From a virus (lineage: Duplodnaviria > Heunggongvirae > Uroviricota > Caudoviricetes): 26,287 nucleotides of DNA. How positions within the stretch are numbered: the stretch's first letter is position 1; every line of letters starts with the position of its first letter. Below, one piece after another: positions 1-24,645 of the stretch. The stretch lies in the IMG/VR virus record IMGVR_UViG_2609460221_000003. One strand, 5' to 3'. Made by a program: the position numbers and the translations under genes. Below the pieces are notes generated by a model. It saw only the letters and a list, made by a program, of their open reading frames with translations. It made no database searches and had not been told where the DNA came from.

Positions 1-849
1 CGAGTGATTCGTGCTGCTGGTGGCGCTGGCGCATTGTCTGACTGGTTACTGCGCCATGTTAAATCCTGCCAGTGGCCACACGGCGATTATCACCACAGTG
101 AAACCGTCATTCACCGTTATGGTACCGGCGCAATGGTGTTGTGCTGGCACTGCGACAACCAGCTGCGCGACCAGACCTCCGAATCACTCGGGCAACTTGC
201 TCACCAAAACCTGTCTGCATGGATGATTGACGTCATACGCCATGCAATGAATGGCTCGCAGGAACGGGAATTATCGCTGGCTGAATTATCCTGGTGGGCG
301 GTCCGCAATCAGGTGGCGGACGCGCTACCGGAAGCGGTATTACGTCGTTCGCTGGGGTTGCGTGCGGAAAAAATCCGCTCAATGTACCGTGAAAGCGACA
401 TCGTACCGGGAGAGCAGACCGCCACCAGCATACTGAAACAGCGCACAAAAAATCTTGCGCCGCTGCCTCACGCCCACCAGCAACAGAACCCACCACAGGA
501 AAAGACGGTGGTCAGCATTGCCGTTGATCCGGAATCTCCGGCTCAGTATCTCCAGCGCCAGAAACCACAACGGGAAGAGATGCCTGTATACACGCGCTGG
601 GTAAAAACGCAGAAATGCATGACGTGTGGCAATCAGGCAGATGATCCGCATCACATCATTGGTCATGGACTGGGAGGGATGGGAACAAAGGCTGACGATT
701 TGTTTGTTATTCCGCTGTGTCGTAAATGCCATAACGAACTACACGCCGGGGTAAAAGATTTTGAAGAAAAACACGGTAGTCAGTTGTTGTTGCTGATTCG
801 TTTTTTAATGCACGCGAGAAATTCGGGTGTTCTGAAGTGGAAAGCATAA
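1..849 (+). CDS. Prophage nin-region protein, DUF968-like with C-terminal Cys/His zinc-finger (HNH-like) motif; 5' end truncated by window edge
   Basis: ORF open from window start, stop TAA 847-849. C-terminus has CMTCGN...HHIIGHGLGG...CRKCHNELH motif. Lies immediately upstream of rusA as in many lambdoid prophages. Family name is recalled, not searched. Confidence 0.55.
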   Translation, partial: RVIRAAGGAGALSDWLLRHVKSCQWPHGDYHHSETVIHRYGTGAMVLCWHCDNQLRDQTSESLGQLAHQNLSAWMIDVIRHAMNGSQERELSLAELSWWAVRNQVADALPEAVLRRSLGLRAEKIRSMYRESDIVPGEQTATSILKQRTKNLAPLPHAHQQQNPPQEKTVVSIAVDPESPAQYLQRQKPQREEMPVYTRWVKTQKCMTCGNQADDPHHIIGHGLGGMGTKADDLFVIPLCRKCHNELHAGVKDFEEKHGSQLLLLIRFLMHARNSGVLKWKA

Positions 850-1218
850 ATGACCGAACGCATAGAATTTGTTTTGCCTTACTCGCCGACGGTGAACACT
901 TACTGGCGACGCCGTGGCAGCACATATTTTGTATCAAAAGCCGGGGAGCGTTATCGCCGGGCAGTGGCGCTTATTGTTCGCCAGCAGCGACTGAAATTAA
1001 GCCTGTCCGGACGGCTGGCAATAAAAATTATTGCAGAGCCACCGGATAAGCGTCGTCGTGACCTGGACAATATTCTGAAAGCACCACTGGATGCGCTGAC
1101 GCACGCGGGGTTGTTAATGGACGATGAGCAGTTTGATGAAATCAATATTGTACGTGGCCAGCCAGTATCTGGTGGACGGCTGGAGATAAGAATTACAGAG
1201 GTGGGTGTGCATGAATAA
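850..1218 (+). CDS. rusA: Crossover junction endodeoxyribonuclease RusA (Holliday junction resolvase)
   Basis: 122-aa ORF; ATG at 850 abuts the upstream stop. Translation carries RusA-like segments (PDKRRRDLDNILKAPLDALTHAGLL, GGRLEIRITE) and typical length (~120 aa). Confidence 0.9.
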   Translation: MTERIEFVLPYSPTVNTYWRRRGSTYFVSKAGERYRRAVALIVRQQRLKLSLSGRLAIKIIAEPPDKRRRDLDNILKAPLDALTHAGLLMDDEQFDEINIVRGQPVSGGRLEIRITEVGVHE

Positions 1219-1900
1219 CCAGTATTTACAGTTTGTTCGTGAGCAACTCATGATTGCCACTGCAGATCTCAGTGGGTCGACAAAATGCCAGCTGGAAGCC
1301 TGGCAGGAAAATGCCCTGTTCGATACAGGGCGTTACAGACGCAAAAAAATTCGTTACCGCGATGAGGTAACCGGAAAAATGATCACGCGGGATAATCCCC
1401 CGATCCAGGGTAAACAATCACTGGCGAAAGGCTCATCAATTGCGCTGGTCAGTCCTGTTGAGTTTGCAACATCATCGTGGCGGCGTGCTGTTCTGGAACT
1501 GGAAGAACATCAGAAGGCGTGGTTGTTGTGGTGTTATGGCGGAAACATTTGCTGGGAGCATCAGATCGCGATAACGCAGTGGGGGTGGAGTGAATTTAAA
1601 ACTCAGTCCGGCTCCAGAAAAATTGCAGTGAAAACGCTGGAGCGTGTGAAGAAGTTGATCTGGCTGGCGGCACAGGATGTCAGAGGATGGGTTACCGGGT
1701 GTGAGGTCTACCAGAGACAGGAGCTTGCCAGACTGTGTGGAGTTAAGCCTGATAACTGGAGCCATAATTATGCGAACTACTGGCGTGAGATGTGCGATAT
1801 TTTTAAGCGCCTCGATAGAGAATCCTTGATTTGCTCCGTGAAAATAAGAGCGCAACAAAAAGCGACCTTTTCACGACGAGATATTGCAAAAGTCAATTAA
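1211..1900 (+). CDS. Late-gene antitermination protein Q-like
   Basis: 229-aa ORF; ATG 1211 overlaps rusA stop (ATGAATAA), RBS GAGGTGG 7 nt upstream. Position (after rusA, before a promoter/terminator pair and the lysis genes) is the canonical Q slot. Sequence-family assignment is from recall only. Confidence 0.6.
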   Translation: MNNQYLQFVREQLMIATADLSGSTKCQLEAWQENALFDTGRYRRKKIRYRDEVTGKMITRDNPPIQGKQSLAKGSSIALVSPVEFATSSWRRAVLELEEHQKAWLLWCYGGNICWEHQIAITQWGWSEFKTQSGSRKIAVKTLERVKKLIWLAAQDVRGWVTGCEVYQRQELARLCGVKPDNWSHNYANYWREMCDIFKRLDRESLICSVKIRAQQKATFSRRDIAKVN

Positions 1901-1925
1901 ATCGCGTATGTTTCGTATAAATCTG
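1884..1925 (+). promoter_or_regulatory. Putative late promoter (pR'-like): -35 TTGCAA (1884-1889), 17-bp spacer, -10 TATGTT (1907-1912)
   Basis: Sigma70-like hexamers with 17-bp spacing straddling the Q stop codon, followed about 50 nt later by a strong intrinsic terminator, as in lambda pR'/tR'. Confidence 0.35.
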
Positions 1926-1961
1926 ATATTTTGCCGATTTTGTACGTGATGGCAAAGTAAG

Positions 1962-1990
1962 AAAAAACCACCGCCAGGTGGTTTTTTTTA
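1962..1990 (+). terminator. Intrinsic terminator (tR'-like), bidirectional in form
   Basis: AAAAAA-CCACC-GCCA-GGTGG-TTTTTTTT: 5-bp GC stem, 4-nt loop, A-run upstream and 8-T run downstream. Confidence 0.7.
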
Positions 1991-2112
1991 TGTCCGAAAA
2001 TCGCGTCAGTACAGTAAACGCGCTGGTGGTTGCGAATACGGGTCTTTCAGCTTGCCGGCTTTTTCGACAAGAGTTATTGGTATGTCACGTTAACCGGAAA
2101 AGGGAAAAAGAC

Positions 2113-2310
2113 ATGCTAAAACAGCAGGATATGACAGAAGCCGCCAGAGTGGTGTTTAATGAATTAAGCGTTACCGACCCGGCGACAGTCAGGGAGATTG
2201 CACAGAATACTTACCTTTCACGCGAACGCTGCCAGTTAATACTGACCCAGCTTGTTATGGCGGGTCTGGCAGACTATCAGTTTGGTTGTTACAGACACCT
2301 TCAGTCCTGA
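2113..2310 (+). CDS. Small hypothetical protein (65 aa), possible helix-turn-helix; stand-alone moron unit
   Basis: ATG 2113 with AAGGGA upstream; stop TGA lies inside a perfect 7-bp hairpin followed by a T-run (2298-2322). The longer 110-aa track ORF from 1978 would start inside the tR' terminator, so the internal ATG is preferred. Confidence 0.4.
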   Translation: MLKQQDMTEAARVVFNELSVTDPATVREIAQNTYLSRERCQLILTQLVMAGLADYQFGCYRHLQS

Positions 2311-2322
2311 AGGCTTTTTTAT
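2298..2322 (+). terminator. Intrinsic terminator
   Basis: CCTTCAG-TC-CTGAAGG followed by CTTTTTTATTT. Confidence 0.6.
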
Positions 2323-2436
2323 TTGTGGTAAATGGGCGGCTGGTGGGTGTGGTGGTTGTTGCTTTCCCGTTGCTGAAAAAGAAAACGCCAGACTGTTAGC
2401 CGGGTATCAGTTAGCGGGAGAAATTTTTAAATACTT

Positions 2437-2650
2437 CACAATTCAGGCGGTTGACTGTTGTCTGGTTTGCGGGGAGTTTGTTAAAAGAAACTGGCATGGT
2501 GAATCCCCCTGTGCGGAGGGGCAATCAGCGAGTAGGTATATGGGATAATCGCGGATTCAGGTGCTGGTACTGAATTCACCGGGAGGCACCCGGCACCATG
2601 CAATGGCACATAGCGCCACTCTCCAGCCCCTCTCCGGAGGGGCTTTTCTG
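2437..2650 (+). ncRNA. Candidate structured RNA unit A (paralog of unit B), ending in an intrinsic terminator
   Basis: Shares three conserved blocks with unit B: GCATGGTGAATCCCCCTG(N)GCGGAGGGGC, CTGAA(T/C)TCACCGGGAGGCACCCGGCACCATG, and AGCCCCTCTCCGGAGGGG plus T-run. CATGGTG...CACCATG can pair as a closing stem. TTGACT box at 2451-2456. No plausible ORF. Confidence 0.3.
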
Positions 2651-2838
2651 TGCCGGATACATCACAGTTTCTGGAACCTTAGGTACTACAGTATCAGTCA
2701 GGGTGCTATATTTTCAGATGTGATGAAAGCCTGTCAGCAGGCAGGGCGTATCGGAAATGACCCAGTAGAGAAAACGTTGACTCAGATACCGGTGCTGAGT
2801 TACCGGGAAACCGGCATCACATGACCGCTATCCTTCCA

Positions 2839-2866
2839 GGCCCATCCGCTCCGGTGGGCCTTTTTA
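2839..2866 (+). terminator. Intrinsic terminator
   Basis: GGCCCA-(9-nt loop)-TGGGCC followed by TTTTT. Confidence 0.5.
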
Positions 2867-2904
2867 CTGCAGAAAACAGGTTCCCCGTTAAATGCTATGT
2901 TGCT

Positions 2905-3137
2905 CACAATTCAGTAAGTTGACAGTTGCCTGTCAGACTGGGCATTTGTTAAAAAAATTTCGCATGGTGAATCCCCCTGAGCGGAGGGGCGACTGGTGAC
3001 GGTATAATCTCTGATTATCAAAACGAGAATGACGCGGGTTTAGTGGCACCGGGCTGAACTCACCGGGAGGCACCCGGCACCATGTGCATGATGATACAGA
3101 TACGCGGCTTTAGCCCCTCTCCGGAGGGGGTTTCTTG
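2905..3137 (+). ncRNA. Candidate structured RNA unit B (paralog of unit A), ending in an intrinsic terminator
   Basis: Same three conserved blocks as unit A with a divergent central segment; TTGACA box at 2919-2924; CCCCTC-TCCG-GAGGGG hairpin plus GTTTCTT at 3114-3137. Confidence 0.3.
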
Positions 3138-3142
3138 TGGGC

Positions 3143-3171
3143 AAAAAAAGCCCGCGCTGGGAGACGCGGGC
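3143..3171 (-). terminator. Intrinsic terminator oriented for the minus strand
   Basis: A-run (3143-3149) then GCCCGCG-(8-nt loop)-CGCGGGC on the plus strand, i.e. hairpin followed by U-run on the minus strand. Confidence 0.4.
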
Positions 3172-3364
3172 GGCAAGGAATAAACAATAAAACGTGAAGT
3201 AATATTTCAGCTGGCGAATAATACCCCATAGTAATCACTCTGCGCAACTGCGCGGTCTTTTTCGAATTGCGGGCTGTCGTGTCTCTTCTGCCATTGTCCT
3301 GTAACTTCCGGACTTCAGCCCGCTCCTTATTTTACTCACAATATTATCCCGGCCGGGAGGATTC

Positions 3365-3477
3365 ATGGCATTTAAACACTATGACGTGGTCAGGGCGGTA
3401 TCGCCGTCAGACCTTGCGAAACGACTGACACAAAAACTGAAGGAGGCTGGCAGCCGTTTGGTAGTCCGGTGGCCATA
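3365..3477 (+). CDS. Out-of-frame N-terminal segment of the esterase gene (DUF1737-like leader), 37 codons
   Basis: ATG 3365 preceded by a strong RBS GGGAGGA at 6-nt spacing; translation MAFKHYDVVRAVSPSDLAKRLTQKLKEAGSRLVVRWP* ends at 3475-3477, overlapping the start of the main esterase frame. Confidence 0.45.
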
Positions 3478-5220
3478 ACCCCTTATACCCTGATGCAGGC
3501 GATTGCAGCAGAAGGTGATGTGGTGGTCAGTGGTGCAACTGAGCCGGATTGGTACTACGTCATCGTACTGGCCGGGCAGTCCAATGCCATGGCTTACGGT
3601 GAAGGGCTTCCGCTGCCGGATTCATACGATGCGCCCCATCCGCGCATTAAGCAACTGGCCCGTCGTAACACAGTGACTCCCGGTGGTGAAGTATGCGTAT
3701 TTAACGACATCATTCCTGCTGACCATTGTCTGCATGATGTTCAGGATATGAGTACGATTAACCATCCCCGGGCTGACCTGAGCAAAGGGCAGTACGGCTG
3801 TGTCGGACAGGGCTTACATATTGCCAAAAAACTGCTTCCGTATATCCCTAATAACGCGGGGATCCTGCTGGTACCATGCTGTCGTGGTGGTTCGGCATTC
3901 ACCCAGGGCACGGAGGGGACATTCAGCGAGTCCACGGGGGCCAGTCAGGATTCGGCTCGCTGGGGAGTGGGTAAGCCGTTATATCAGGATCTGCTTTTCC
4001 GCACGAAGGCAGCATTGCAGAAAAACCCGAAAAACGTTTTGCTGGCGATATGCTGGATGCAGGGGGAATTCGATATGACGAATGCCAGTTACGCCCAGCA
4101 GCCAGCAGCATTTCTTGCAATGGTACAGCAGTTCCGTGCTGACCTTGCCGGGCTGGCGGCGCAGTGTCACGGTGGAAGTCCGGCATCAGTCCCCTGGATT
4201 TGTGGCGACACGACATACGCGTGGAAACAAGAACACGGTACGCAATATGAAGTGGTATATGGTGCATATAAAGGTAAAGAATCCCAGCAGATTTATTTTG
4301 TTCCCTTTATGACCGATGGTAGCGGAGTTAATACACCGACAAACAACCCGTCAGAAGATCCTGATATTGCCGGGTCTGGTTATTACGGTTCGGCATCCCG
4401 AACGAACAAAAACTGGGTATCATCAAATCGCCCGACGCATTTCAGCTCATGGGCGCGTCGTGGCATTATTCCCGATCGTATGGCAACTGCTATTCTGAAC
4501 GTAGCCGGTCGCACCTTAGCCTTCATTAGTGGTAAGGCACCGGAAATCAAACCCTCGCCCGGCGGCGACACTCCATCGGGGCCGTCTGATGGTGACACAT
4601 CCGTTCGTACAGTCTCCCTGCTGCCGACAGCCGGAGAGGCTGCTGCGCAGGGCTGGACCATCACCGGCGGCAGTGTTGCGCTGGAAGATGGTGTGTTTAA
4701 GGTTACCAAGCAGAGCAATAAAACTTGGTCCCTGATGCATCCGGTGGATGACGCAGTCTCCCTGCTGACACGGGGTGGCAGACTGAGCTGTAAGTTTCGA
4801 CTGTCAGGCGCACTGACCAACAACCAGTTCGGTCTGGGAATTTATCTGTATACCGATGTAGCGTTACCTGACGTCGTGGCGATGACCGGGACTGGTAACC
4901 CGTTCCTGATGTCGTTCTTCACCCAGACCACAGACGGCAAACTGAATCTGATGCATCACAGGAAAGCAGGAAACACAAAGTTGGGCGAGTTCGGGAATTA
5001 CAGTAACGACTGGCAGACGCTGGAGCTGGTGTTCACCGCCGGCAGTGCCACGGTTACTCCGAAACTGAATGGAGTGGCTGGCCCGGCATTCCAGGTCATA
5101 AAAGACAGTCTGACACTGGGGCTGAATGCGCTGACGCTGACGGATATTACCAAAAATGCAGCGTATGGCGTTGAGATAGAAAGTCTGGTGCTGGAGATAA
5201 ATGCACCAGCATCATCATAA
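3469..5220 (+). CDS. Prophage sialate 9-O-acetylesterase (NanS-p-like, SGNH/SASA hydrolase with C-terminal extension)
   Basis: 583-aa ORF. The N-terminal part carries the esterase signature (VIVLAGQSNAMAYGEG; WMQGEFD). It sits in the usual NanS-p position between Q/toxin locus and holin. The true start is probably ATG 3365 in another frame (see findings). Confidence 0.8.
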   Translation: MAITPYTLMQAIAAEGDVVVSGATEPDWYYVIVLAGQSNAMAYGEGLPLPDSYDAPHPRIKQLARRNTVTPGGEVCVFNDIIPADHCLHDVQDMSTINHPRADLSKGQYGCVGQGLHIAKKLLPYIPNNAGILLVPCCRGGSAFTQGTEGTFSESTGASQDSARWGVGKPLYQDLLFRTKAALQKNPKNVLLAICWMQGEFDMTNASYAQQPAAFLAMVQQFRADLAGLAAQCHGGSPASVPWICGDTTYAWKQEHGTQYEVVYGAYKGKESQQIYFVPFMTDGSGVNTPTNNPSEDPDIAGSGYYGSASRTNKNWVSSNRPTHFSSWARRGIIPDRMATAILNVAGRTLAFISGKAPEIKPSPGGDTPSGPSDGDTSVRTVSLLPTAGEAAAQGWTITGGSVALEDGVFKVTKQSNKTWSLMHPVDDAVSLLTRGGRLSCKFRLSGALTNNQFGLGIYLYTDVALPDVVAMTGTGNPFLMSFFTQTTDGKLNLMHHRKAGNTKLGEFGNYSNDWQTLELVFTAGSATVTPKLNGVAGPAFQVIKDSLTLGLNALTLTDITKNAAYGVEIESLVLEINAPASS

Positions 5221-5370
5221 AAAGTGAGCCAGTCAAATGGAAGGTATCGTTAAACTCACCGGTAGTGTCAGTGGGTCGTCTGAGATGCCTGCATGAGTTA
5301 TCAGAGCCATCAGTACTTAACTGGTGGCTTTTTTTATTGTTGTCAGCTTCCGGATAACGGGAGACGGGGT

Positions 5371-5586
5371 ATGTACCAGATGGAAAAAATCACAACAGGT
5401 GTGTCATACACCACGTCAGCGGTGGGAACGGGCTACTGGTTCCTGCAGTTGCTGGACAGGGTTTCCCCGTCTCAGTGGGCGGCAATAGGCGTGCTGGGGA
5501 GTCTGCTGTTTGGGCTGCTGACATATCTGACTAACCTGTATTTCAAAATCAGAGAGGACCGTCGTAAGGCTGCACGGGGAGAGTAA
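5371..5586 (+). CDS. S: Holin, phage 21-type pinholin (class II, dual start)
   Basis: 71-aa product with two transmembrane segments and charged C-terminus ([13 protein letters not shown]); dual-start motif MYQMEK with ATGs at 5371 and 5380. Preceded by a hairpin plus T-run at about 5304-5336. Confidence 0.85.
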
Positions 5587-5590
5587 TTCA

Positions 5591-5935
5591 ATGACTCAAA
5601 ACTATGAACTGATTGTGAAAGGGATCCGCAATTTTGAGAATAAAGTTACGGTAACTTTAGCGTTACGGGACAAAAAACGCTTTGACGGTGAAATTTTTGA
5701 CCTGGACATCTCGCTGGACCGTGTTGAAGGTGCCGCGCTGGAGTTTTATGAGGCAGCAGCCAGAAGGAGCATCAGACAGGTCTTCCTGGATGTTGCTGCC
5801 GGGTTATGTGAAGGGGATGAGCAGTCGCCGGAAAAGCGCCCCGTAATTTTAGAGGCGCAGGATGTGTTGATAACCTACAGAGGAAAACTACCGGGAATAA
5901 TTACGGGTTCTCTGAAGAGTCCGCCGAAATGGTAA
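5591..5935 (+). CDS. Hypothetical protein (114 aa) between holin and endolysin
   Basis: ATG 5591 lies 4 nt after the holin stop (translational coupling), GGGGAGAG upstream; no recognisable family. Confidence 0.5.
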   Translation: MTQNYELIVKGIRNFENKVTVTLALRDKKRFDGEIFDLDISLDRVEGAALEFYEAAARRSIRQVFLDVAAGLCEGDEQSPEKRPVILEAQDVLITYRGKLPGIITGSLKSPPKW

Positions 5936-8579: not shown

Positions 8580-8710
8580 TTATTTCATCAGAAATTAATT
8601 ATCACTCTGTTGTTATTCTGTACATCCCGGCAGGGTAAGTCTTGTTCTGTCGGATATGAAGATGAAATATTGTTGGAGGACAGTNGGTACCTGCTCCTGT
8701 AACCGAACGT

Positions 8711-8911
8711 TCATTTCTCGTTATTTGTCATGCTGGCCGGGCGCAGATGCGTTGCATCTGTTGCCAGCCTTCTCCTGCAGGCTTCAATAACCCACGCTGA
8801 AAAGTTACCGGACCCTTTATGCTCAAGGGCGATGTTGATCTGTTCAATCATGTGATTGGGGAAACGGATATTGCGGGTTGTGGTTCTGCGGGTACGGTTT
8901 TTCGATGACAT
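8711..8911 (-). CDS. Small ribbon-helix-helix-like DNA-binding protein (66 aa)
   Basis: Minus-strand ATG at 8911 with AAGGA 7 nt upstream; basic N-terminus followed by a strand-helix-helix pattern (RNIRFPNHMIEQINIALEHKGSGNFSAWVIEACRRRL). Divergent from the HNH gene. Confidence 0.45.
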   Translation of the reverse strand: MSSKNRTRRTTTRNIRFPNHMIEQINIALEHKGSGNFSAWVIEACRRRLATDATHLRPASMTNNEK

Positions 8912-8952
8912 ATTTATTTCCTTTACTGATTGCCATATGACGGGGATTTTAC

Positions 8953-9318
8953 ATGGCTGAGCTTCGTACACTCCAGAGCAGAATCAAAACACTGAATACC
9001 CGACGGGTGAATATTCTGAAGGGTGAACAGCGTCGTGTCAGTGGCAGTGCACGTGTTTCCCTCAAGCGTCATATCTGGCTCAGGGACGCCGGGCAGTGCC
9101 GTCTCTGTGGTCGTGTGGTTGACCTCTGTGACAGTGAACTCGATCACCGAATTGCACTTCAGTTCGGTGGTGGTAATGAGGAGACGAATCTCTGGACGCT
9201 CTGTACCGAATGCCATCGACAAAAGTCTGCTCGTGAAGCGGCGAGTGATATGCCGGACCCGACGCTGCCGGAGGTGTCCGGAGGTAGTGGCAGAGAGGAC
9301 GACATCATCGGACTGTAA
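8953..9318 (+). CDS. HNH endonuclease (terminase-associated)
   Basis: 121 aa with HNH motif CRLCGRVV...DHRIALQFGGGNEETNLWTLCTECHRQK; located just upstream of cos/terS as in HK97-type cos phages. Confidence 0.85.
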   Translation: MAELRTLQSRIKTLNTRRVNILKGEQRRVSGSARVSLKRHIWLRDAGQCRLCGRVVDLCDSELDHRIALQFGGGNEETNLWTLCTECHRQKSAREAASDMPDPTLPEVSGGSGREDDIIGL

Positions 9319-9410
9319 CCCGACCCCGGGGGGGTATCATCCGGCGTAAAAAACGATCGCTTTGGACACCGCGCCCCCTCTCACGCAGAGAAAAAATTCC
9401 CGTTTCANGG

Positions 9411-9538
9411 CAGTTAACATGTTAACTGGCTGCCCGGGCATTTTTGCGGTTTTTATCTTTATTATTCAGTTTGTTGTGCGGAAAAAATGTTAACAGGCTT
9501 TTTCAGCAAATGTTAACCAGGCAGCAGTTAACATTTGC
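9411..9538. repeat. Cluster of five TGTTAAC/GTTAACA motifs; candidate terminase-binding (cosB-like) elements
   Basis: cagTTAACATGTTAACtgg (palindromic pair, 9411-9427), aaTGTTAACagg (9487-9497), aaaTGTTAACcagg (9508-9521), cagTTAACATttg (9526-9538), in the 290-bp non-coding gap before terS. Confidence 0.4.
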
Positions 9539-9608
9539 GGCATGAGACGCCGGGAAAAATGGGCTGAACCATACCCGGCTGAGTGCGTTCTGGACCCGGG
9601 AGGAGGCT

Positions 9609-10172
9609 GTGCTGACAACGCAAAAACGAAAATTTGCGCTGGCGCTCATGTCCGGGAAAAACAAAACAGCGTCAGCCATTGCCGCCGGTTATTCGGCGAA
9701 GACCGCCAGGGTTAAAGGCTCGCAGCTGGCAAAAGATCCGGAGGTGCTTGCGTTTATAGCCCGTAAACAATGCGAGACGGTGGAGGTGGATGAGGTTCCT
9801 GTTTACCGGCAGAAAAAATCAGAGCAGGAGGATAAACCCCGTCGCCGTGAGGCGGCTGCAATACCACAGCCGGACGAAAACAATCCGGAGATGCCACCGT
9901 CCGCGGTGATGTCTCCTGGTATTGAATATATGGAGGATGGTCTTCCCGATCCGGTGAAAGCCATGGGGCGGATCCTGGTGGAAAACCTCTGCATTGATCC
10001 GAAACTGGCACTGGATGCGGCCTGGCGTCTGGCGCAGTTCACGCACCATAAAAAAGGGGATACCGGGAAAAAATCGGCAAAAGGTGATGCCGCGAAAAAA
10101 GCGGCTAACCGTTTTGCGGTGCCACCGCCACCCCGACTGGTGGTGAATAACGATAATGAGGGCAACGGATGA
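9609..10172 (+). CDS. terS: Terminase small subunit
   Basis: GTG start with strong RBS GGAGGAGG; N-terminal HTH typical of TerS (KRKFALALMSGKNKTASAIAAGYSAKTARVKGSQL); stop overlaps terL start (ATGA). Confidence 0.8.
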   Translation: MLTTQKRKFALALMSGKNKTASAIAAGYSAKTARVKGSQLAKDPEVLAFIARKQCETVEVDEVPVYRQKKSEQEDKPRRREAAAIPQPDENNPEMPPSAVMSPGIEYMEDGLPDPVKAMGRILVENLCIDPKLALDAAWRLAQFTHHKKGDTGKKSAKGDAAKKAANRFAVPPPPRLVVNNDNEGNG

Positions 10173-11830
10173 TACCTGTATGGAGCACAGCCTGCCCGGA
10201 CTGGGCAGAGCGCCTGAAAAAGGGGCTGTCGATTATTCCGGATCCGATTTATCCGGACGAGGCCGCACATGCCCTGGCGATTTTTAAACAACTGCGGATT
10301 GTGGATGCACCTGGTAGCCCTACGTTCGGGGAGTCCTGTGCACCGTGGGTGTTTGACCTGGTGGCGGCCCTGTTTGGCTCCTACGATGCGCAGACCGGTG
10401 TACGCCATATCAAGGAAGTTTTTATCCTTATCCCCAAGAAAAACTCGAAGTCCACGCTGGCCGCGGGGATCATGATGACTGCACTGTTACTGAACTGGCG
10501 GCAGGCGGCGGGTTACACGATTCTGGCCCCGACTGTGGAGGTGGCGGCCAACGCCTTCAACCCTGCCCGGGATATGGTACGACGTGACGATGATCTGGAT
10601 GACCTCTGCCAAGTACAGACCCATATCCGGACCATCACCCACCGGGTGACAGACACCACCCTGAAGGTGGTGGCAGCCGATCCGAATACGGTGTCCGGTA
10701 TCAAGTCCGTGGGTACGCTGATTGATGAGTTGTGGCTGTTTGGCAAGCAGTGCAAGGCGGAGGACATGTTACGTGAAGCCATAGGCGGCCTTGCCTCCCG
10801 CCCGGAAGGGTTTGTGGTGTATACGACCACCCAGTCGAATGAACCGCCCGCCGGGGTGTTCAGACAGAAACTGCAGTACGCCCGGGATGTGCGCGACGGC
10901 AAAATTCATGATCCGCACTTTCTGCCGGTGATATTTGAACACCCTCCTGAAATGGTGGAAAGCGGGGCTCACCTGCTGATGGAAAACCTCGCCATGGTCA
11001 ATCCTAATCTCGGCTATTCAGTGGATGAGGCCTTTCTGTACCGGGAGTACCGTAAAGCCCGGGAAGCCGGTGAAGAGACATTCCGGGGGTTCATGTCAAA
11101 ACACGCCAATGTGGAAATTGGTCTTGCCCTGCGCTCTGACCGCTGGGCGGGGGCTGATTTCTGGGAAGAGCAGGGCCGTTGTATCAGCCTGGACGATATC
11201 CTGCGTCGTGCTGATGTGGTGACGGTGGGGATTGACGGCGGAGGGCTGGATGATCTGCTGGGGATGTATGTGATTGGGCGTGACCGGGAGACCCGCGAAT
11301 GGCTGGGCTGGGGCCATGCCTGGGCGCATGAAACCGCGGTGGTCCGACGGAAGAGCGAGGCGTCCCGGTTTCAGGATCTTGTTGCCTGTGGAGATATGAC
11401 CATTGTCCGGCGTGTCGGGGATGACACGGCGGAAGTGGCGGAATATGTGCGTCGCATTCATGAGGCTGAGTTACTGGACCATATCGGTATTGACCCGTCA
11501 GGGGTGGGGCAGATTCTGGATTCACTGGCGGAAGCCGGGATCCCCGACGGAATTGTGGTGGGGATAAGCCAGGGCTGGAAACTGGGCGGGGCCATTAAAA
11601 CCACCGAGCGCAAACTGGCTGAAGGGGTGCTGGTGCATGGTGACCAGCCCCTGATGGCCTGGTGTGTCGGCAATGCCCGGGTGGAGCCTAAAGGTAACGC
11701 CATTCTTATCACCAAACAGGCCAGTGGACGGGGAAAAATTGACCCGTTGATGGCGCTGTTCAATGCGGTCTCCCTGATGTCCCTTAACCCGGAACCGAAA
11801 AAGAAAGAATATGCGGTTTTTTTCATATAA
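10169..11830 (+). CDS. terL: Terminase large subunit (ATPase/nuclease)
   Basis: 553 aa; Walker A-like ILIPKKNSKST; size and position typical of TerL. Confidence 0.9.
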   Translation: MIPVWSTACPDWAERLKKGLSIIPDPIYPDEAAHALAIFKQLRIVDAPGSPTFGESCAPWVFDLVAALFGSYDAQTGVRHIKEVFILIPKKNSKSTLAAGIMMTALLLNWRQAAGYTILAPTVEVAANAFNPARDMVRRDDDLDDLCQVQTHIRTITHRVTDTTLKVVAADPNTVSGIKSVGTLIDELWLFGKQCKAEDMLREAIGGLASRPEGFVVYTTTQSNEPPAGVFRQKLQYARDVRDGKIHDPHFLPVIFEHPPEMVESGAHLLMENLAMVNPNLGYSVDEAFLYREYRKAREAGEETFRGFMSKHANVEIGLALRSDRWAGADFWEEQGRCISLDDILRRADVVTVGIDGGGLDDLLGMYVIGRDRETREWLGWGHAWAHETAVVRRKSEASRFQDLVACGDMTIVRRVGDDTAEVAEYVRRIHEAELLDHIGIDPSGVGQILDSLAEAGIPDGIVVGISQGWKLGGAIKTTERKLAEGVLVHGDQPLMAWCVGNARVEPKGNAILITKQASGRGKIDPLMALFNAVSLMSLNPEPKKKEYAVFFI

Positions 11831-11856
11831 CCCTGTTCACACTGTAACCATCACGA

Positions 11857-11877
11857 ACCGCTCCGGCGGTTTTTTTA
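11857..11877 (+). terminator. Intrinsic terminator-like hairpin between terL and the protease gene
   Basis: ACCGC-TCCG-GCGGT followed by TTTTTTT. Confidence 0.5.
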
Positions 11878-11893
11878 TTTTCAGGAGGCTGAT

Positions 11894-12883
11894 GTGACTC
11901 TTAAACGGGCCTGTTCCCTGCTGACGGTGAAATCCTTCAGTGAGGATGAACGAGTGATCACCGGGATTGCGTCAACGCCTTCTCCGGATCGGGATGGTGA
12001 CATCCTGGAGCCGGAGGGCGCGGAGTTTGGCAGTGCGATCCCGTTTCTCTGGCAGCATGACCATTCCCGCCCGGTGGGGCAGTGTACGGTGCGCCGGGTC
12101 AGCGAAGGGCTGGAAATCACGGCAACACTGGTGAAGCCCGTACCGGATATGCCGTCGCAACTGGCTGCCCGGCTGGATGAGGTCTGGGCGGCCATTAAGA
12201 CCGGGCTGGTCAGGGGGCTGTCCGTGGGCTTCCGTCCCCATGAATACACCTTTCTGGACGGAGGCGGACTGCATTTTCTGCGCTGGGAACTGATGGAGGT
12301 GTCTGCCGTCACCGTGCCCGCGAATGCGGAATGCACCATCCGGACCATTAAATCTTACGACCGCCCGTTTTCTGCCGCGTCCGGCAACCGGAAACCGGTG
12401 GTGAAAATCGCATCTTCTGCCGGCGCTGCGGCACAGTCAACAACCGTTTTTCATAAGGAAAAGACCATAATGAATATTGGCGAACAGATTAAAAGTTTTG
12501 AAAACAAGCGTGCAGCGCTGGCAGCCTCCCTTGAGGAGGTCATGACCAAAGCCGCAGAGGAAGGGCGCACGCTGGATGTGGAGGAGGAAGAGCATTACGA
12601 CAACACCGCAGCGGAAATCCGTCAGGTGGATGCGCACCTGAAGCGCCTGCGTGAACTGGAAGCCGGTAAGGCCGCCACGGCGCAGCCGGTGAAACAGGCC
12701 GGTAACGGGAATGTGGCCGCGGTGGCTTCTGCGCCGGTGATCCGTGTGGAGCAGAAACTGGATAAGGGGATTGGCTTCGCCCGCTTTGCCAAATCGCTGG
12801 CTGCGGCTAAAGGCGTCCGATCTGAAGCCTGGAAGTGGCCCGTCGTCAGTATCCGGATGACAGTCGTCTGCATCATGTCCTGA
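11894..12883 (+). CDS. HK97-family prohead protease with C-terminal scaffold-like coiled-coil region
   Basis: N-terminal about 170 aa has the prohead serine protease pattern (FLWQHDHSRPVG...GLSVGF...EVSAVTVPAN); C-terminal about 150 aa is a charged coiled-coil (delta/scaffold-like). Frame runs into the capsid ORF. Confidence 0.8.
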   Translation: MTLKRACSLLTVKSFSEDERVITGIASTPSPDRDGDILEPEGAEFGSAIPFLWQHDHSRPVGQCTVRRVSEGLEITATLVKPVPDMPSQLAARLDEVWAAIKTGLVRGLSVGFRPHEYTFLDGGGLHFLRWELMEVSAVTVPANAECTIRTIKSYDRPFSAASGNRKPVVKIASSAGAAAQSTTVFHKEKTIMNIGEQIKSFENKRAALAASLEEVMTKAAEEGRTLDVEEEEHYDNTAAEIRQVDAHLKRLRELEAGKAATAQPVKQAGNGNVAAVASAPVIRVEQKLDKGIGFARFAKSLAAAKGVRSEAWKWPVVSIRMTVVCIMS

Positions 12884-13830
12884 AATCGGCAGTGGGCGCG
12901 GGGACCACCACGGATCCGCAGTGGGCAGGCAGCCTGTCTGAATATCAGGAATACGCACAGGACTTTATTGATTACCTGCGTCCGCAGACCATTATCGGGC
13001 GATTTGGTCAGGGCGGGATCCCTGCACTTCGTCAGGTGCCGTTCAATATCCGTGTGCACGCCCAGGTGTCCGGCGGTGCTGCCGGCTGGGTGGGTGAGGG
13101 TAAGGCAAAACCCCTGACGAAGTTTGATTTTGAATCCATCACCTTCAGTCATGCGAAGGTGTCGGCCATTGCGGTACTGACGGAAGAATTGATCCGTTTT
13201 TCCAGTCCGGCTGCTGATGCACTGGTCCGTAATGCGCTGGCGGAAGCGGTGGTGGCGCGTCTGGATACAGACTTTGTGGACCCGAAAAAAGCCGCAGTGG
13301 CAGATGTCTCCCCGGCGTCCATCACCCATGATGTGAAGGGCACGGCATCAACCGGTAACCCGGATGCGGATGCAGAGGCTGCGTTTGGACAGTTTGTGGC
13401 AGCAAACCTGCAGCCCACCGGTGCGGTCTGGCTGATGTCCAGCACCAATGCCCTGGCACTGTCCATGCGTAAAAATGCGCTGGGTCAGAAGGAATACCCG
13501 GACATGACCCTGCTGGGTGGCTCCTTCCAGGGGCTGCCGGTGATTGTCTCCCAGTACGTGGGTGACCAGCTGGTGCTGGTGAATGCCCCGGATATTTATC
13601 TGGCGGATGACGGCGGCGTGGCAGTGGATATGTCCCGCGAGGCATCACTGGAAATGCAGTCTGAGCCGGGCGGCGACAGTACCACGCCGTCCCCGGTGGA
13701 GCTGGTTTCCATGTTCCAGACAGGCAGCGTGGCCATCCGTGCGGAGCGCTGGATCAACTGGCGTCGTCGCCGTACCGCGGCGGTGGCGGTGATCACCGGA
13801 GTGAACTACGGCAGTGCGTCCGGCGGCTGA
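12835..13830 (+). CDS. Major capsid protein, HK97 fold
   Basis: 331-aa ORF with HK97-like MCP character; begins in a different frame overlapping the protease/scaffold ORF by 49 nt. Confidence 0.8.
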   Translation: MARRQYPDDSRLHHVLKSAVGAGTTTDPQWAGSLSEYQEYAQDFIDYLRPQTIIGRFGQGGIPALRQVPFNIRVHAQVSGGAAGWVGEGKAKPLTKFDFESITFSHAKVSAIAVLTEELIRFSSPAADALVRNALAEAVVARLDTDFVDPKKAAVADVSPASITHDVKGTASTGNPDADAEAAFGQFVAANLQPTGAVWLMSSTNALALSMRKNALGQKEYPDMTLLGGSFQGLPVIVSQYVGDQLVLVNAPDIYLADDGGVAVDMSREASLEMQSEPGGDSTTPSPVELVSMFQTGSVAIRAERWINWRRRRTAAVAVITGVNYGSASGG

Positions 13831-14041
13831 GTCTGATAAGGAGGACGGGAGGCGTGCGCCTCCCGTAACAGGTTATGGCAAAGATCCGATATCTGCAGGG
13901 CACGCATGATGCCCGGGCCGGGGATATCCGTGATGTGGCACAGCCGTGTGCGGAGGTGCTGGTTCGCCTGGGAAAGGCGGAGTACATCACGGTGCGACGT
14001 CCGGCAGGTCAGAAAAAGAAACGTGATGCGGAGCATGGCGA

Positions 14042-23902: not shown

Positions 23903-24645
23903 ATGACACAGACTGAATCAGCGATTCTGGCGCATGCCCGGCGGTGTGCGCCTGCGGAGTCGTGCGGCTTCGTGATAAGCACGCCGGAGGGGGAGCGGTA
24001 TATCCCTTGTGTGAATATTTCCGCAGAGCCGGAGGCGTATTTTCGTATCGCACCGGAAGACTGGCTGCGGGCAGAGATGCAGGGGGAGATTGTGGCACTG
24101 GTCCACAGTCATCCCGGTGAGCTGCCCTGGCTGAGCGAGGCTGACCGGCGGCTGCAGATAAAAAGCGCACTGCCTGGTGGCTGGTCTGCCGGGGGGAAAT
24201 TCATAAATTCCGCTGTGTGCCACATCTGACAGGACGGCGCTTTGAGCACGGGGTGACGGACTGTTACACGCTGTTCCGGGATGCATACCATCTGGCGGGA
24301 ATTGATATGCCGGATTTTCATCGCGAGGATGACTGGTGGCGCAACGGCCAGAACCTGTACCTGGACAATATGGCGGTCACCGGCTTTTACCGGGTGNCCC
24401 TGTCCTCTGCACAGCCGGGCGATATCCTGCTGTGCTGCTTCGGCGCATCGGTGGCTAATCATGCCGCCATTTACTGCGGCAACGGTGAACTGCTTCACCA
24501 TATTCCTGAACAACTGAGTAAACGGGAGAGGTATTCCGAAAAATGGCAACGACGAACGCATTCTGTCTGGCGTCACCGCCACTGGCACACATCTGCCTTC
24601 ACGGGGATTTACAACGATTTGGCCGCCGCCTCAGCCTGTATGTGA
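23903..24645 (+). CDS. K: Tail assembly protein K (MPN/JAB plus NlpC/P60 domains), frame-disrupted
   Basis: N-terminal piece MTQTESAILAHARRC... (MPN-like, HSHP motif) ends at 24229; C-terminal piece with NlpC/P60 Cys/His motif (GDILLCCFGASVANHAAIYCGNGELLHH) is in another frame from about 24217; N at 24397. 3' end uncertain (overlaps I). Confidence 0.75.

Follow-up and report, generated by a model that had tools for sequence, protein, structure and literature searches.

A single missing G splits the esterase gene of an Escherichia coli prophage contig into two reading frames and is probably a consensus or base-calling error

Introduction

The locus studied here raises the question of why a prophage esterase gene should have a strong ribosome-binding site and an ATG in one reading frame, and nearly all of its coding sequence in another frame, for which such a start is not apparent. 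We analyzed the whole stretch of DNA in which this gene is found (the window, 26,287 nt); it corresponds to the full length of JNOJ01000059.1, a draft contig from the E. coli assembly GCA_000740615.1 (locus tags GR07_). In a preliminary description of this DNA, the two frames had been attributed to a likely one-nucleotide indel in a run of G, and three causes had been considered, namely a sequencing error, a recent inactivating mutation, and expression from an internal start. We compared the gene with its homologues and the contig with its closest relatives, and looked for the shortened run in complete genomes, phage collections and sequencing data.

Structure of the split gene

The following elements define the locus:

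3355-3361, + strand: Shine-Dalgarno sequence GGGAGGA, read directly and kept in five divergent homologues
3365-3478, + strand: ORF of 37 codons; residues 1-27 are the true N-terminus (the first half of DUF1737), residues 28-37 an out-of-frame tail
3445-3446, + strand: GG run, the site of the missing base; GGG in three near-identical prophages
3469-5220, + strand: main esterase ORF from GTG, 583 aa, with the rest of DUF1737, the catalytic SASA/SGNH domain (GQSN motif) and, at the C-terminus, DUF6645
3365-5220, + strand: whole gene once the missing G is put back; its 618-aa product is identical to WP_000874529.1

The Shine-Dalgarno sequence of the esterase gene lies 4 nt 5' of ATG 3365, and the sequence around the start reads ...CCGGCCGGGAGGATTC ATG GCA TTT AAA CAC TAT GAC GTG.... 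The frame opened by this ATG contains 37 codons, MAFKHYDVVRAVSPSDLAKRLTQKLKEAGSRLVVRWP, followed by TAA at 3476-3478. This agrees with the preliminary description as far as the start, its Shine-Dalgarno sequence and the length of the ORF are concerned; however, the stop had been put at 3477. The main esterase frame is closed upstream by TGA at 3382-3384, is open from 3385 to its end at 5220, and reads ...TEGGWQPFGSPVAITPY.... It is indeed open from 3385 without a ribosome-binding site, as had been noted, but its first start codon is not ATG 3493, because GTG 3469 comes earlier. The two codons would give products of 583 aa (GTG 3469) and 575 aa (ATG 3493), and both lack a suitably spaced Shine-Dalgarno sequence; the sequence AAGGAGG at 3440-3446 sits 22 nt upstream of GTG 3469.

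The G run, as deposited, is G3442 G3443 A3444 G3445 G3446. Its shortened part is the GG at 3445-3446, where every homologue aligned has GGG or, in the more distant alleles, AGG. Addition of one G at this place (GG > GGG) gives ...KLKEGWQPFGSPVAIT..., which is the exact sequence of the intact relatives. The indel that had been supposed to lie in the run can thus be placed at 3445-3446, with a repaired junction that matches the intact relatives. An alignment with intact homologues, which had been suggested as a check, supports the same conclusion: the five homologues are in a single frame, and in the DNA alignment the window is the only sequence without one base, at GA[G]GGC. In the protein alignment, the two frames of the window join exactly between ...KLKE and GWQPF.... 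The Shine-Dalgarno sequence and the ATG are unchanged in all five homologues in the DNA alignment, although some of these are up to 45% divergent in protein.

Protein family, relatives and genomic setting

The leader had been taken for the DUF1737 domain of a NanS-p-type esterase, and this assignment was confirmed. In Pfam, the 37-aa peptide alone matches DUF1737 (PF08410) with 26.7 bits, above the cutoff of 24, at profile positions 1-25 of 53; the repaired protein has 57.1 bits and matches the whole domain (positions 1-53 of 53). The in-frame DUF1737 of the NanS-p type is therefore represented by half a domain in the ATG frame of the deposited sequence, and by the whole domain after one G is restored. 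The 583-aa ORF contains SASA (PF03629, 48 bits) and DUF6645 (PF20350, 69 bits). Residues 59-379 of the repaired protein are similar to E. coli NanS/YjhS (PDB 3PT5, E 1e-122), with conservation of AGQSNAMAYG (the GQSN serine block), and residues 422-614 are similar to the NanS-p C-terminal domain (PDB 6YP6, E 1e-30). The gene has a SASA/SGNH catalytic domain, a lectin-like/jelly-roll C-terminal domain, and a late-region location between Q (or stx) and the lysis cassette, all of which are characteristic of NanS-p. Judging from sequence, the gene is an ordinary, already described member of the NanS-p family, i.e., a predicted prophage sialate O-acetylesterase of 618 aa with the domains DUF1737, SASA/SGNH and DUF6645.

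The closest relatives are prophages in three complete E. coli chromosomes (WP4-W18-ESBL-09, W46 and E118), which are 99.9% identical to window 2424-26287, over 23.4-23.9 kb. In all three, the esterase gene is an intact CDS of 1,857 nt that encodes WP_000874529.1 (annotated as "DUF6645 domain-containing protein"). The repaired window protein is identical to this protein over 618 aa, and the missing G at 3445-3446 is the only difference between the genes. The exact 618-aa protein is found on 512 contigs in a collection of 15 billion proteins. At the protein level, phage 86 is 87% identical to it, the Stx1/YYZ-2008 type 83%, and the Stx2a type (e.g., VT2-Sakai) 52-55%. A homologue is present in 353 records of the phage collection, 341 of which cover at least 80% of the protein. 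Among the matches listed, all phage homologues start at residue 1 and have the leader in frame, suggesting that the leader is the normal start of the gene; the proposal of an internal start as the natural cause of the layout is thus not supported.

The gene belongs to the late operon of a lambdoid prophage. It is preceded by the Q antiterminator (approximately 1205-1900) and followed, after approximately 150 nt, by the holin (positions taken from the annotated relatives). DUF968, RusA and Q are found on the 5' side, and holin, lysis, terminase, head and tail genes on the 3' side. Phage 86 has the same gene order, with the lysis gene S downstream. The Q-esterase-holin layout is the known arrangement of NanS-p genes (PMC10462455).

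Comparison with the NanS-p genes of EHEC and Stx phages (933W, VT2-Sakai and phi24B gp84; structure 6YP6) shows the same order of domains (DUF1737, SASA, DUF6645). The position is also shared, as the gene follows Q, and stx if the phage has one, and precedes the holin. There is near-identity in the Shine-Dalgarno sequence, the ATG and residues 1-34. There are also differences, because the identity to the Stx2a-phage type is low (see above), stx is absent from the window, and the gene of the window is frameshifted as deposited. K-12 NanS (YjhS, a 9-O-acetyl-N-acetylneuraminate esterase) shares with the window protein the catalytic domain, the GQSN block and long identical stretches. However, the 337-residue chain of 3PT5 aligns only with residues 59-379, so that it has no counterpart of either the DUF1737 leader or DUF6645. 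In K-12, NanS is encoded by a chromosomal gene of the nan regulon, and not by a phage late gene. In the case of phi24B, which is of the podovirus type, whereas the window prophage is a long-tailed lambdoid with a protease-capsid fusion, the DUF1737 domain of gp84 is reported to decorate the capsid and to be removed from the esterase by cleavage at a point approximately after residue 54-57 (bioRxiv 10.64898/2026.04.10.717836, 2026 preprint).

Differences private to the contig

We defined a difference as private when the window disagrees with all three relatives (WP4-W18-ESBL-09, W46 and E118), over positions 2861-26287 (23.4 kb). Four private 1-nt deletions were found, at 3445, 12827, 20797 and 24172, each of which is a change GGG/CCC > GG/CC. 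In addition, there are seven Ns in the contig (8685, 9408, 16746, 17698, 21776, 22068 and 24397). Five of these (8685, 9408, 16746, 21776 and 24397) substitute the first base of a GGG, GGGG or CCCC run, whereas the other two (17698 and 22068) are extra inserted bases that are absent from all relatives. Private base substitutions were not found over the 23.4 kb compared to the three relatives. The sites outside of the esterase gene are as follows:

12826-12827, + strand: CCC > CC; splits the 645-aa Peptidase_S78 + Phage_capsid fusion gene (11894-13830) into 329 + 331 aa
20796-20797, + strand: CCC > CC in the tape-measure gene, from the comparison with relatives
24171-24172, + strand: CCC > CC in the gpK-like C40/JAB peptidase gene (23903-24645), a frameshift at CCCTGG
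17698, no strand: inserted N in the HK97-gp10-like gene (17307-17735), frame shifted
22068, no strand: inserted N in the tape-measure gene, from the comparison with relatives
8685-24397, no strand: five substituted Ns, each in place of the base that opens a run of 3-4 G or C

With the esterase site included, six frame-breaking events affect five genes: the esterase, protease-capsid, gp10-like, tape-measure (twice) and gpK-like genes. Apart from its private differences, the sequence is identical at every base to relatives whose prophages look functional. The split of the capsid gene at 12827 coincides exactly with the boundary that separates its protease/scaffold and capsid parts. The tape-measure gene (19618-22860; 3,243 nt in the relatives) is cut into three ORFs by the deletion at 20797 and the N at 22068.

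The distribution of these events is far from random. All nine non-insertion events are in G/C runs of at least 3 bases, which account for 9.3% of the bases (P ~5e-10), and GGG(G)C is the context of eight of these nine (P 0.003; the baseline is 38%). No event was found in any of the 552 A/T runs, nor in the 7-nt runs, although natural slippage would be concentrated in the latter. The sites 12827 and 24172 are both CCCTGG, i.e., a C followed by a Dcm site (CCWGG).

Search for the deletions in other genomes and data sets

We compared window 3412-3478, which includes the GG allele, with 5,806 homologous places in 2,371 complete E. coli genomes. None of these places matched it perfectly, and the best matches differ from the window by exactly one gap. 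No exact match of the GG allele was found in IMG/VR, where the GGG allele is present in 53 contigs, and none was found in the GTDB species representatives. Three metagenome matches to a 22-mer of the GG allele were rejected as unrelated genes with no other similarity.

The predicted products were also compared with the collection of 15 billion proteins, in which there is no exact entry for either the 37-aa or the 575-aa product. For the 583-aa product that starts at the GTG, we found one exact record, EZJ22220.1, which begins with M at this GTG and comes from another draft (E. coli 1-182-04_S4_C3, a contig of 5,796 nt). This record may mean that a second, independently assembled genome has the deletion; an equally possible origin is a first-start-codon call on a contig that begins inside the multi-copy esterase gene. 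It should be noted that the 5' end of the esterase gene occurs in up to 10-13 places per genome and is therefore a likely break point for contigs.

With regard to the other deletions, complete E. coli genomes never showed CC at 12827 (2,924 places compared), and complete genomes never showed CC at 20797 (2,821 places). The exact 329-aa fragment produced by the CC allele of the capsid gene is, however, present on 57 Logan contigs (the SRR2187xxx series and SRR18191147), which are prophages 97-99.8% identical to the window. Four other records, one of them a 4.8-Mb NCBI contig, share the tail produced by the gpK frameshift (SALPGGWSAG...) and have different alleles. The view that all four deletions are errors unique to this contig is thus weakened. 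We read the recurrences of the capsid and gpK frameshifts as likely recurrent errors at sites that are difficult for certain types of data, but some of the recurrent sites may be real mutational hot spots, and the capsid allele may be a real split of the gene. Within the SRR2187xxx series, the prophage contigs are separated by few substitutions (mostly 0-2, with 6 and 17 in two pairs), yet show sporadic CCC > CC and G6 > G5 indels among themselves. Under-calls of homopolymers thus do occur in sequencing data of such prophages.

Origin of the missing base

What we observed directly is the indel, the existence of intact relatives, and the pattern of faults along the contig; the cause of the missing base has to be judged from these. 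In our opinion, the missing G at 3445-3446 is probably a consensus or base-calling error of the draft assembly, and a sequencing error, which was among the causes named in the preliminary description, is favored accordingly by the features of the contig: its seven Ns, the three other GGG/CCC > GG/CC deletions in essential phage genes, and the lack of any private substitution. One missing G (GGG recorded as GG) would be sufficient to produce both the 37-codon leader ORF and the start-less 583-codon body, in an assembly that would tend to drop the opening base of short G/C runs or to leave it uncalled, mostly in GGG(G)C. The inserted Ns cannot be biological, and reading frames are broken by Ns in the same manner as by the deletions; from this pattern alone, we infer that the esterase deletion belongs to the same class of errors. 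Draft-assembly errors in homopolymer length have the same appearance, with single bases missing from short G/C runs only, Ns where such a run begins, no substitutions, and several essential genes broken in an otherwise identical sequence. It should be noted that homopolymer slippage is also the commonest natural indel, which counts against an artefact.

The alternative is a real deletion, in which case recent slippage would have truncated DUF1737 after residue 27 in a prophage that is decaying. We regard this as unlikely, even though several observations are compatible with it. The 583-aa product is recorded in a second draft (EZJ22220.1), the capsid and gpK frameshifts of the window recur in other data sets, and the frameshifts in the capsid and tape-measure genes, if real, would by themselves make the prophage defective. 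The esterase body would then be silent, or expressed at a low level via re-initiation at one of the internal starts, GTG 3469 (V36 of the whole protein) or ATG 3493 (M44). Such a product would be leaderless, 583 or 575 aa in length, with complete catalytic and C-terminal domains, because these are located downstream of both starts. Since GTG 3469 overlaps the end of the leader ORF, 7 nt before its TAA, the geometry would permit termination-reinitiation, and some re-initiation is conceivable. A leaderless enzyme could still be active, considering that K-12 NanS is without DUF1737, that 3PT5 aligns with the catalytic domain only, and that the domain of phi24B is reportedly cleaved off the esterase. 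The composition of the private differences, however, argues against a real mutation: there are four private deletions versus zero private substitutions in 23.4 kb. In mutation-accumulation studies of E. coli, natural substitutions outnumber indels roughly ten to one, and at this ratio four indels without a substitution would have a probability of ~1e-4. Furthermore, each deletion affects a G/C run of 3 nt and none affects a run of 7 nt, the same contig has seven Ns at the same kind of site, and the GG allele is absent from the 2,371 complete genomes with homologues.

A real deletion would be of a routine kind, inactivating an accessory gene of an already defective prophage or removing the leader of its product, and any attachment of the esterase to the capsid of this phage would be lost with the leader. 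As DUF1737 has recently been proposed to anchor the esterase to the capsid, enzyme function and virion attachment would be uncoupled in a natural leaderless form. An extended version of this scenario, in which the deletion uncouples the esterase from DUF1737, a free leaderless NanS-p is made by re-initiation at GTG 3469, and the sites GGGC/CCCTGG are recurrent hot spots that knock out the same late genes, appears considerably less probable still, although hot spots would fit the capsid and gpK frameshifts that are common to other data sets. The least credible of the explanations, and a very improbable one, is that the two-frame layout is designed, either by -1 ribosomal frameshifting (e.g., at CAAAAAC 3430-3436, near AAGGAGG) or as a natural isoform with an internal start. 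An A-rich stretch and the Shine-Dalgarno-like AAGGAGG are indeed found within the 94-nt overlap of the two frames, and a -1 shift in this overlap would yield a nearly native protein. However, the five aligned homologues have the same A-rich stretch and the same AAGGAGG and nevertheless keep the leader in frame, the phage homologues among the matches listed begin at residue 1, the sequence has no canonical X XXY YYZ heptamer, and both internal start codons are without a usable Shine-Dalgarno sequence. The GG allele is limited to this contig, plus at most one other draft, and nothing points to selection for two frames. Programmed frameshifting and a natural internal start were therefore rejected, as the two-frame layout and a slippery site are not conserved in the five single-frame homologues.

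Under the preferred explanation, a consensus or base-calling error, JNOJ01000059.1 would contain approximately one consensus fault per 2 kb, and at such a rate the frameshifts, split genes and start-less ORFs of the contig need to be checked against reads before any biological interpretation. The main value of this case is one of caution, because the underlying gene is already known and an identical protein is found on hundreds of E. coli contigs.

Other features of the window

Two copies of the STnc100 sRNA (Rfam RF02076; 136 and 159 bits) were found between Q and the esterase gene, at 2465-2655 and 2933-3142 (+ strand), and each copy finishes in a terminator-like hairpin. A cluster of terminator-like hairpins is found in the same interval between Q and the esterase gene, and terminator-like sites are enriched in the region 1900-5700 (15 found versus 3.4 expected). 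A mosaic junction is located at approximately 2424-2435; the part 3' of it matches the WP4-W18/W46/E118 prophages, whereas window 1-2430 is 100% identical to other E. coli genomes, e.g., strain 7/2. In the relatives, a module consisting of a DNA methyltransferase gene and tRNA-Ile/Arg/Arg genes is present between Q and the junction, with the tRNA genes just upstream of the place where the similarity to the window starts. This module is absent from the window, and no tRNA was detected in the window by ARAGORN.

The relatives have their own lesions. In W46, an IS200C is inserted at approximately window 2861-2877, 5' of the esterase gene (locus L002, 3586-4044). At window 5693, it is the complete genome of WP4-W18-ESBL-09 that is frameshifted (T6 versus T5) while the window is intact (locus L004, 6170-6515, corresponding to window 5591-5935); the YdfR gene is annotated as a pseudogene in WP4-W18-ESBL-09. 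Finally, a tandem repeat with a unit of 162 nt is present at 15629-16161 (3.3 copies, 94% matches, units of 54 aa), inside an 861-aa gene that is annotated as a portal protein in the relatives.
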